From the NCBI GenBank assembly GCA_016710075.1, contig JADJLO010000002.1:59488-123487 (forward strand): DNA of 64,000 nucleotides. Direction: 5' to 3'. The notes beneath the pieces are model-generated. The model saw only the letters and a program-made list of their open reading frames with translations, searched no databases and had not been told where the DNA came from. This DNA is from Acidobacteriota bacterium (GTDB lineage: Bacteria > Acidobacteriota > Blastocatellia > RBC074). The position numbers were made by a program, and so were the translations under genes. Below, piece by piece: positions 41,387 to 42,062 of the stretch; positions within the stretch are counted from its first letter, which is position 1, and each line of letters begins with the position of its first letter.

Positions 41387-42062
41387 GGCCTTTCGGCCGA
41401 TTCGCAAATTGCGTCACACAGTGTGCCCCGTAACCTGTGTGGCGCAACCTGCGAATCGATAATGTAGTTACCGGTTAAATCCGACCCCCGTGTCATTACT
41501 TCAACCGACAACTACAAACCCTGAGGAGCTGCGCTCCTGATAATTCGTTGTCAAACCAATGTAAAGATCTTTTATCTGTTGAAGGCCGATCCGCAAGTTA
41601 CGTCGCCCGATGTGCCCCGTATTTCCAAGCGGCGTAACCTGCGTATCGTAGTTTGTAGCCGTCGACTAAAATCCGACCCCCGTGTCTTTTCCAGCCGAAG
41701 CTACAAATTGAAACCGTCTGAGGTTTGGTTTAAATGAACAAACAAATCTGATGATTGATCCGCAAGTTACGTCGACTGGCGTGCCCCGTTATCCAGTCGG
41801 CGTAACTTGCGAATCAGGCGATTGTGATCATCAACCGAAATCCGACCCCCGTTTTCTTCCGGCAGACAATCACAAAATCAAAACCACGTTGAGCTGCGCT
41901 CGAACTCCGCAGGCCTTACGGCCGATTCGTAAATTGCGTCACACAGTGTGCCCCGTAACCTGTGTGGCGCAATTTACGACTCGATAATGTAGTTACCGGT
42001 TAAATCCGACCCCCGTGTCCTTGCTTTAACCGATGACTACAAATCCGGAGGAGCCACGCTCC
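41387..42062. ncRNA. Array of four structured repeat units (candidate ncRNA/ssDNA element)
   Basis: Invariant GTGCCCCGT at 41423/41612/41781/41948 and AAATCCGACCCCCGT at 41477/41669/41838/42002, each in a hairpin loop whose stems vary with compensatory changes; no credible ORF. Confidence 0.7.

Follow-up and report, generated by a model that had tools for sequence, protein, structure and literature searches.

A four-unit double-hairpin array in an Acidobacteriota genome is the central part of a ~1.2-kb minus-strand noncoding RNA gene with a predicted sigma-54 promoter

The intergenic gap between an M16 peptidase gene and an SbcD-like gene of an Acidobacteriota bacterium (assembly GCA_016710075.1, contig JADJLO010000002.1) contains a tandem array of four double-hairpin units, which raises the question of whether these units are a repetitive DNA element, the leader of a neighboring gene, or an RNA gene in their own right. 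The window analyzed here is the whole stretch of 64,000 nucleotides from positions 59,488 to 123,487 of that contig; the array occupies its positions 41387 to 42062, where an earlier note, made from the sequence alone, had proposed an undescribed structured RNA or single-stranded DNA (ssDNA) system. We found that these units make up the middle of one noncoding RNA gene, which is ~1.2 kb long and encoded on the minus strand. This is very probably an independent, sigma-54-dependent gene for a noncoding RNA (ncRNA) that acts in trans, and the most likely function of its product is that of a trans-acting multivalent regulatory RNA.

The four units, each with a hairpin A and a hairpin B, hold up as described in the earlier note, including the A-to-B spacing. 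The 15-mer AAATCCGACCCCCGT, which is the loop motif of hairpin B, occurs exactly four times in the 64 kb (at 41477, 41669, 41838, and 42002), with no further match in the window at up to 2 mismatches (0.17 expected by chance). In the plus-strand reading, GTGCCCCGT lies 54 to 57 nt upstream of each copy, inside the 13-nt loop of hairpin A, whose arms in the window are 24 nt each and 88 to 92% complementary. The short GAGC-NNN-GCTC hairpin (C) was found in the units that the note had numbered 1, 3, and 4, and the near-identity that it had seen between units 1 and 4 amounts to 90% over 151 nt. Overall, the units are 165 to 190 nt long, share 65 to 90% identity, and are separated by AU-rich linkers. 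Compared with shuffled sequence, the 691-nt stretch has a fold z-score of −14 on the plus strand and −11 on the minus strand, with the minus strand being more stable in terms of folding energy (−297 versus −266 kcal/mol). The statement that the array holds no open reading frame (ORF) was correct in substance, since the mechanical ORFs are 52 to 80 amino acids long and overlap covarying stems. In RNA order, which is the reverse of the numbering in the note, the units and their parts are as follows.

41912-42062, minus strand: unit 1 (subtype A; unit 4 of the note), from sequence, fold, and covariation; C hairpin 42050-42062, hairpin B 41988-42041, hairpin A 41923-41983, GUAA-loop hairpin 41912-41923
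41753-41905, minus strand: unit 2 (subtype E; unit 3 of the note), from sequence, covariation, and subtype clustering; C-like hairpin 41891-41901, hairpin B 41822-41875, hairpin A 41756-41816
41584-41720, minus strand: unit 3 (subtype B; unit 2 of the note), from sequence, covariation, and subtype clustering; hairpin B 41653-41706, hairpin A about 41587-41647
41387-41537, minus strand: unit 4 (subtype A; unit 1 of the note), from sequence, fold, and covariation; C hairpin 41525-41537, hairpin B 41463-41516, hairpin A 41398-41458, GAAA-loop hairpin 41387-41398

Relatives were sought by scanning a species-representative genome collection for exact matches to both loop motifs at the observed spacing. 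This gave 78 loci, 76 of them in metagenome-assembled genomes (MAGs) of Acidobacteriota, mostly labelled Blastocatellia, with one to seven units each. Ten genomes contribute two loci, so that about 66 species are represented, and 222 units were extracted, of which 211 are distinct. The window's own species is absent from these loci, the best matches being pieces 72 to 83% identical. Two loci, L036 (Terriglobales) and L060 (Acidimicrobiaceae), were set aside as chance matches, without stems, promoter, or 3′ domain.

In RNA sense, a unit consists of an optional GGAGC-NNN-GCUCC hairpin, hairpin B, hairpin A, and, only after subtype-A units, a small GGCC-loop-GGCC hairpin. Hairpin B is about 17 bp long and carries an apical GAC-ACGGGG-GUC followed by GGAUUU, with the sole conserved GGA of the unit lying in its internal loop; hairpin A is about 24 bp long, and ACGGGGCAC is part of its 13-nt loop. 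The loops ACGGGGCAC and ACGGGGGUCGGAUUU (9 and 15 nt) are essentially invariant in the 222 units, while the stems vary freely, and the loops of the two hairpins share the element ACGGGG(C/G)(A/U)C. The A-to-B motif spacing is 53 to 58 nt in nearly all of the ~220 units from other genomes, and the unit-to-unit spacing is mostly 150 to 225 nt.

The impression that the stems change yet stay paired was confirmed by a covariation test on 135 non-redundant units (RNA sense, 43 pairs, 500 shuffles). In these units 93.3% of the stem cells are paired, compared with 80.5% in the shuffled alignments and 31 to 40% when the partners are slid. Double changes occur in 37 of the 43 pairs, with 889 double-change cells against 245 in the shuffles, and none of the 500 shuffles equalled any observed covariation value. 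The GAC-ACGGGG-GUC mini-stem of hairpin B is 87.5% paired, without covariation. When 44 consensus pairs were counted over the 211 distinct units as read on the plus strand, 6987 were Watson-Crick, 1396 A:C or C:A, and 258 G:T or T:G. Because an A:C mismatch on the plus strand corresponds to a G·U pair on its complement, selection has acted on a structure of the minus strand, and this is the strand of the RNA. The consensus folding energy of the 211 units is −86.6 on the minus strand versus −67.3 on the plus strand, both hairpins being the consensus structure on either. The strand, which the earlier note had left undecided, is thus now assigned as minus from this wobble asymmetry and from the orientation of the promoter and terminator described below.

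Clustering of the units into subtypes revealed that the A-B-B′-A order remarked upon in the note reflects a conserved grammar, in which the subtypes keep their order across species. The orders found are A-C-D-A-A (6 loci), A-C-C-D-A-A (5 loci), H-I-G-J (5 loci), A-B-A (4 loci), and A-E-B-A (4 loci and the window). This recurrence indicates that the array is old and position-specific rather than a recently amplified repeat. Extra A-type hairpins without a hairpin B occur in some loci.

Alignment of 24 single-unit loci showed that conserved sequence extends well beyond the unit. The four units at 41387 to 42062 are real, but these coordinates turned out to be only the middle 56% of a transcription unit that spans about 41074 to 42281 on the minus strand (~1,210 nt), with the promoter and upstream activator sites reaching 42489. 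The larger RNA around the array, with its conserved 5′ and 3′ domains, had been missed in the earlier note. Its features, in the direction of transcription, are as follows.

42472-42489, minus strand: distal upstream activator dyad TGTCATCATTTGTGGACA (TGTC-N10-GACA), presumed site of a bacterial enhancer-binding protein; only match in the window, from conserved k-mers
42440-42457, minus strand: proximal upstream activator dyad TGTCCACTATCATGGACA, 18 bp, of the TGTC-N10-GACA form; conserved and unique in the window
42292-42307, minus strand: sigma-54 promoter −24/−12 element TGGCACGGTCATTGCA; only exact TGGCAC-N5-TTGCW match in the 64 kb
42063-42281, minus strand: 5′ domain, fold z-score −4.1, with a CCUCACC-loop hairpin at about 42146-42160
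41127-41386, minus strand: 3′ domain, from the alignment of 53 loci, fold z-score −4.3, with a UCCCAAG-loop hairpin at about 41295-41317, a nested hairpin at about 41262-41278, UCCCACUU at about 41182-41203, and GGGUCCUCACCCCAGCA at 41123-41139
41074-41126, minus strand: intrinsic terminator, AGCAG..GGCUGCAGGCA..UGCCGGCAGCC..UUGCUG and then UUUU; from sequence, conserved in 53 loci

The position of the sigma-54 element predicts a transcription start at about 42281. Among loci that include enough DNA upstream, almost all have an element of the form TGGCAC-N5-TTGC(A/T/C), with at most 1 mismatch, that precedes the first unit by 120 to 450 nt. The dyads lie about 130 to 180 nt upstream of the promoter and are conserved in both position and sequence, with conserved k-mers at −130 to −170 in 63 loci, of which 54 carry a TGTC-N10-GACA dyad (2.8% of random segments). 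Together, the two dyads and the −24/−12 element have the classic layout of an enhancer-binding-protein-dependent sigma-54 promoter. No gene for an enhancer-binding protein, as recognized by GAFTGA or Walker motifs, was found in the window. A generic sigma-70 promoter and terminator scan returned no minus-strand promoter, and it missed the real terminator owing to the long loop.

In the 5′ domain, multi-unit RNAs have one CCUCAC-loop hairpin, and RNAs with a single unit have three or four. In the window this domain also contains, at 42082-42105, a perfect 12-nt tandem duplication of CTTTAAGATCAA; a third copy is present in one metatranscriptome contig (X34), so the repeat number differs between strains. 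The 3′ domain is about 250 nt long and is conserved in 53 loci, with hairpin loops UCCCAAG, UCCCA(G), and UCCCACUU, followed by the conserved AACGACCGC, then GGGUCCUCACCCCAGCA, and finally the hairpin and U-run of the terminator. In these loci 90.7% of the cells of the domain are paired, versus 32 to 39% when slid, with compensatory changes in 36 of 55 pairs and, in RNA sense, 166 G·U against 86 A·C pairs. The predicted transcript length ranges from 540 to 1744 nt over the loci.

Public metatranscriptomes show that the region is expressed, the RNA being far more abundant than the mRNAs of its neighbors. The 31-mers of the array are present in 14 runs from 5 wastewater or sludge studies, and in eight RNA runs contigs were obtained only over about 41115-42250, with a word depth of 4 to 35, against 0 to 5 for the flanking SbcD-like and peptidase genes. 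In these eight runs there is no RNA coverage upstream of 42250, and the downstream gene is essentially uncovered. The contigs end at 42235-42250 on the start side and at 41115-41209 on the terminator side, limits that match the predicted start (42281) and terminator (41074). The depth of four DNA metagenomes is flat across the genes and the RNA region, which shows that the RNA signal is not DNA carry-over. All seven adapter remnants have the read-1 adapter on the low-coordinate side, as expected for a minus-strand RNA in reverse-stranded libraries, which gives weak but consistent support for this strand. Moreover, 30-mers of the loop B region reach a depth of up to 1000 with differing flanks in the RNA samples, indicating that homologous RNAs of other species are very abundant in the same samples. 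RNA contigs that span several units, and therefore represent unprocessed RNA, also exist (e.g., 41465-41938).

Two joints were seen in the RNA contigs of X32 and X29, one linking 41455 to 41981 (525 nt skipped, from unit 1 to unit 4 of the note) and the other linking 42062 to 41565 (498 nt back). Neither the apparent deletion nor the backward joint was found in the four DNA runs. Both probably arose when the 90%-identical units 1 and 4 were collapsed during assembly; less probably, they reflect RNA that is circular or rearranged.

Each genome carries one or two loci, which are syntenic among the species-representative genomes, and in at least four genomes there seem to be two complete loci, each with its own gene context. 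A search of metagenome contigs with the 3′ domain alone showed that all 11 true matches with enough upstream DNA carry units, and that those with enough further-upstream DNA also carry the sigma-54 element. A zero-unit form of the RNA was not found by this pattern, which gave one chance match (L082). Exact-protein look-up of the downstream gene of the window, made for strain-level relatives, found no record.

Some of the MAGs with the same RNA gene are labelled 'Heliomicrobium' or 'Heliobacteriaceae', i.e., Bacillota in the NCBI taxonomy (L002, L003, L007, L012, L019, L024, L032, L037, L043, L045, L049, L061, and L068). Most of them share the neighborhood of the Blastocatellia MAGs, and their labels probably arose when Acidobacteriota bins were mapped to the wrong taxon. 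In L008, L010, and L037 there are paralogous single-unit loci with a shorter RNA, another gene context, and a different strong terminator, in which the UCCUCACCCCA motif is missing and the TGTC-N10-GACA dyads are mostly missing. This suggests a paralogue that may be under another activator.

Tandem hairpin-forming repeats in an intergenic gap, in a genome that has dispersed hairpin repeat families, could also be an element that acts as DNA: a REP, MITE, or REPIN, an ssDNA substrate of an HUH/RAYT enzyme, a CRISPR-like array, or a type III antitoxin. This reading is hardly credible given that the motifs are confined to the array within the 64 kb, that the two-motif pattern gave 0 matches in viral contigs, and that the units are 165 to 190 nt long and 65 to 90% identical rather than near-identical. 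The RNA gene has its own promoter, upstream activator sites, and terminator, and its transcript is specific and abundant; these properties, with the one or two syntenic loci per genome and the absence from viral contigs, speak against the ssDNA hairpins that the earlier note had listed as a third option. The ordinary REP/MITE family that it had also kept in view was rejected, as was a REPIN, because only four arrayed copies exist in the 64 kb and the loci per species genome are one or two and syntenic. Its view that this is not a CRISPR array stands, as the variable parts are paired and covarying and the units are orthologous by position across species. No cas, transposase, or ToxN-like genes were seen among the six window neighbors scanned against Pfam or in the conserved flanking clusters inspected by eye. 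Antitoxin repeats of the ToxI type are about 34 to 45 nt long and near-identical, and are followed by a terminator and then by an endoRNase toxin gene. The size and divergence of the units do not fit this arrangement, nor do the downstream genes, which are Metallophos/SbcD-like or, in about 15 loci, NUDIX.

The genomic context bears on whether the RNA is a leader. Downstream, and co-oriented with the RNA, about 40 loci have an SbcD/Mre11-like phosphoesterase gene followed by a family-2 glycosyltransferase (GT2) gene, and about 15 have instead a NUDIX hydrolase and a CPBP protease. On the upstream side, the divergently oriented neighbor codes for an M16 peptidase or for FabF/PyrE. In the window, the neighbors are the M16 peptidase and the SbcD-like gene (Metallophos). 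The fact that the RNA stays while its neighbors change argues for an independent gene rather than a leader. As a cis-acting leader or attenuator, the RNA would place the sigma-54 promoter at the service of the downstream pair (SbcD-like and GT2, or NUDIX and CPBP), with the terminator controlling read-through. The co-orientation of the downstream gene in both main locus types, 240 to 450 nt past the terminator, would fit such a role, which is nevertheless very improbable: the downstream gene differs between clades, the paralogous loci lie in other contexts, and practically no RNA was found on the downstream gene in the eight runs. The terminator is strong and conserved with no alternative antiterminator visible, a dispersed inverted repeat separates it from the gene in the window, and an RNA of 0.6 to 1.7 kb with repeated modules is unlike known leaders. 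Some read-through control of the downstream gene is a small possibility.

To place the RNA among known families, the whole window was compared with Rfam 15 at gathering thresholds, which gave no match; at E ≤ 10, the segment 40500-43000 gave only far-below-threshold miRNA, snoRNA, and leader matches to generic hairpins. A tRNA/tmRNA scan returned nothing. Acido-1 (RF01686) and Acido-Lenti-1 (RF01687) are among the RNAs submitted to Rfam (PMC2864571, Table 1). Literature searches on ncRNAs of Acidobacteria and Blastocatellia found no description of such an RNA in the papers searched, and a search of these papers for the loop 12-mers gave no match. The suspicion of the earlier note that it belongs to no known family is in line with these results, and its status as an undescribed RNA family is well supported. 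Readings of the loops as K-turn, guanidine-II (ACGR loops), tRNA-like, or 5S/16S-mimic elements were rejected, as by eye they offered only 4- to 6-nt resemblances.

The closest working parallels appear to be the modular sigma-54 RNAs of the NrsZ and CrcZ type, to neither of which the RNA belongs. NrsZ is a nitrogen-regulated small RNA (sRNA) of Pseudomonas, about 226 nt long, with single-hairpin modules of about 60 nt; it is transcribed from an RpoN promoter, carries one to six stem-loops that all have the same 12-nt loop and are separated by spacers, is processed, and pairs with the leader of its target in a kissing complex (PMC4253122). The likeness lies in the predicted sigma-54 promoter, which here is an exact TGGCAC-N5-TTGCA at 42292-42307 on the minus strand and is conserved across loci, in an enhancer-binding activator, which here is presumed, and in tandem stem-loops with an identical, rather G-rich loop motif and structured spacers. 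The copy number varies by species in both, with one to six modules in NrsZ and one to seven units here. In contrast, no similarity exists at the sequence or Rfam level, the NrsZ loop motif is GUACAGGCAGGC as opposed to ACGGGGCAC and ACGGGGGUCGGAUUU, and the single-hairpin modules of NrsZ differ from the double-hairpin units of 165 to 190 nt, with ordered subtypes and 5′ and 3′ domains, found here. The nrsZ gene lies next to ntrBC/ntrC, whereas this RNA gene lies between the M16 peptidase and SbcD-like genes.

CrcZ is a sigma-54-driven protein sponge. With CrcZ/CrcY and RsmZ/RsmY/CsrB the RNA shares the display of one short motif in many copies in loops or single strands, inducible and abundant expression, and a variable copy number. 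However, the motifs of CrcZ are A-rich and those of Csr/Rsm RNAs are GGA, present many times in hairpin loops to which CsrA/RsmA binds, and these sponge RNAs are much smaller and have no long, fixed-length covarying stems or subtypes. The repeated loop element here is ACGGGG and not GGA/ANGGA.

ANTAR proteins recognize pairs of short, neighboring hairpins joined by a constrained short linker, the loop of each being a hexaloop with A1 and G4, and the sRNA EutX can sequester an ANTAR regulator (PMC8934654). The inner hexaloop ACGGGG of hairpin B has A1 and G4, as in EutX/Rli55 and other ANTAR targets. However, the loop of hairpin A is 13 nt and not a hexaloop, the loops are about 55 nt apart on long separate hairpins, and there is no overlap with a terminator; the ANTAR-like hexaloop is best taken as a lead suggested by the sequence and not as membership.

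Repeated sRNA modules with conserved loops are also found in CcsR1-4, LhrC1-5, and Qrr1-5, which are separate small transcripts or RNAs derived from 3′ untranslated regions with C/U-rich seeds, Qrr being sigma-54 dependent. Here, a single long transcript carries G-rich unit loops. The comparison with C-rich CcsR-like loops made in the earlier note assumed the plus strand and does not apply to the minus-strand loops (ACGGGG). The large ncRNAs OLE, ROOL, GOLLD, HEARO, and raiA each have one fixed architecture, and we know of no sigma-54 promoter reported for them. They are similar in size class, in their many covarying helices, and in their abundance, and differ from this RNA, which has a variable number of repeated modules and no Rfam match. 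What is known is the general kind, an inducible modular regulatory RNA; new are its size, its double-hairpin units with ordered subtypes, its flanking domains, and its G-rich invariant loops.

How might such an RNA act? Two options of the earlier note, tandem sRNA modules with functional loops and a multivalent sponge, both remain leading mechanisms. As a multivalent protein decoy, a proposal that we favor tentatively and with less than even confidence, the RNA would be made when an enhancer-binding protein activates sigma-54. It would then display 2 to 14 copies of ACGGGG(C/G)(A/U)C, each at the end of a long and rigid stem, with the two copies of each unit held at a fixed distance, and would titrate an RNA-binding protein, probably a dimer, whose targets would be re-programmed. 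This logic is that of CrcZ, RsmZ/CsrB, and EutX; base pairing with sites that are G-rich or resemble Shine-Dalgarno sequences may be a further role of the RNA, through the C-rich loops in its 5′ and 3′ domains. The decoy is favored because the loops are invariant across about 66 species, because two related motifs occur in two distinct conserved structural settings, because the loop-to-loop geometry is fixed (53 to 58 nt), and because the valency varies by species (one to seven units) with no zero-unit form found.

Several observations weigh against this proposal or against the wider interpretation as a trans-acting RNA. Neither a partner protein nor a partner RNA was identified, and the repeated motif matches no known protein-binding motif, with only hairpin B fitting the ANTAR hexaloop rule (A1, G4). 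NrsZ, which acts by base pairing, also has an invariant 12-nt loop (PMC4253122). The position-specific subtypes suggest that the units are more than redundant binding sites. As the RNA contigs carry no strand information, the strand rests on wobble asymmetry, on promoter and terminator orientation, and on adapter orientation. In all locus types, moreover, the downstream gene has the same orientation as the RNA.

The main rival is base pairing in the manner of NrsZ. Cleavage within the AU-rich linkers would release single units or hairpins from a long sigma-54-driven precursor, and the invariant loops would form kissing or seed duplexes with C-rich sites, GUGCCCCGU and CCGACCCCCGU, in one or a few target RNAs. 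The architectural parallel is close, comprising the RpoN promoter, the one to six identical-loop stem-loops, the spacers, and the processing (PMC4253122), and the window has both AU-rich linkers and, in the 5′ and 3′ domains, the seed-like C-rich loops CCUCAC and UCCCA. Against this, a search of the window and of ~0.7 Mb of related loci with 9-mers complementary to the loops gave no recurrent site outside the RNA gene, and a target just as invariant would be required to explain 9 to 15 nt of invariance over about 66 species. Simple seed pairing offers no obvious role for long stems of conserved length or for a fixed loop distance, and the contigs spanning several units show that unprocessed RNA is present. 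We regard both the cleavage and the pairing as doubtful, though to be taken seriously.

Another way to explain the invariant loops is that they serve the RNA itself, with the G-rich unit loops docking on other copies, or on C-rich loops within the 5′ and 3′ domains, to build a three-dimensional particle or multimer. The scale is that of OLE, ROOL, and GOLLD (predicted length 540 to 1744 nt), many covarying helices extend over three domains, the subtypes are ordered and position-specific, the CCUCAC hairpins are more numerous in single-unit than in multi-unit forms, and GGGG occurs together with CCCC/UCCC loops in one RNA. However, the number of C-rich loops does not scale with that of G-rich ones (correlation −0.17 to 0.38), the loop-loop pairing would be of only about 4 bp, and invariant loops give no covariation test. 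Given that the variable number of units also speaks against one fixed fold, a large structured RNA of this kind is improbable. A related idea, to which we assign a rather small chance, is that the RNA represents a new class, large, modular, and under sigma-54 control, distinct both from simple sponges and from seed-pairing sRNAs, in which the ordered subtypes (such as A-E-B-A and A-C-D-A-A) and the 5′ and 3′ domains make up a defined ribonucleoprotein or RNA-only particle. With a similarly small chance, such a particle would be a scaffold of ACGGGG loops that organizes several copies of a cellular machine or enzyme, the number of units tuning the valency.

Returning to a trans-acting regulatory RNA, its finding is relevant since Acidobacteriota are among the most abundant bacteria of soil and wastewater, and no similar regulatory RNA of theirs was found described. 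It would link signalling through sigma-54 and enhancer-binding proteins to post-transcriptional control in this phylum, with a design that stands between small modular sRNAs (NrsZ, CrcZ, and Rsm) and large enigmatic ncRNAs (OLE, ROOL, and GOLLD). The invariant 9-nt and 15-nt loops offer a handle on the partner, and the upstream activator dyads a handle on the activator and hence on the signal. The RNA may also serve as a ready marker of Blastocatellia activity in metatranscriptomes.

Between the terminator of the RNA and the SbcD-like gene, an inverted repeat was observed at 40889-41072, with 62-nt arms that are 87% complementary around a 60-nt center and rich in ACGAAA. It is the source of the spurious miRNA matches in Rfam. 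The depth of its arms in metagenomic DNA and RNA runs into the hundreds to thousands, with many differing flanks, which indicates that the element belongs to a widely dispersed repeat family. The TTG at 40917 that the mechanical ORF list gives as the start of the SbcD/Mre11-like gene is disfavored, as the ORF would enter this repeat; the most likely start is the ATG at 40834-40836 on the minus strand, with which the N terminus matches those of the orthologues.

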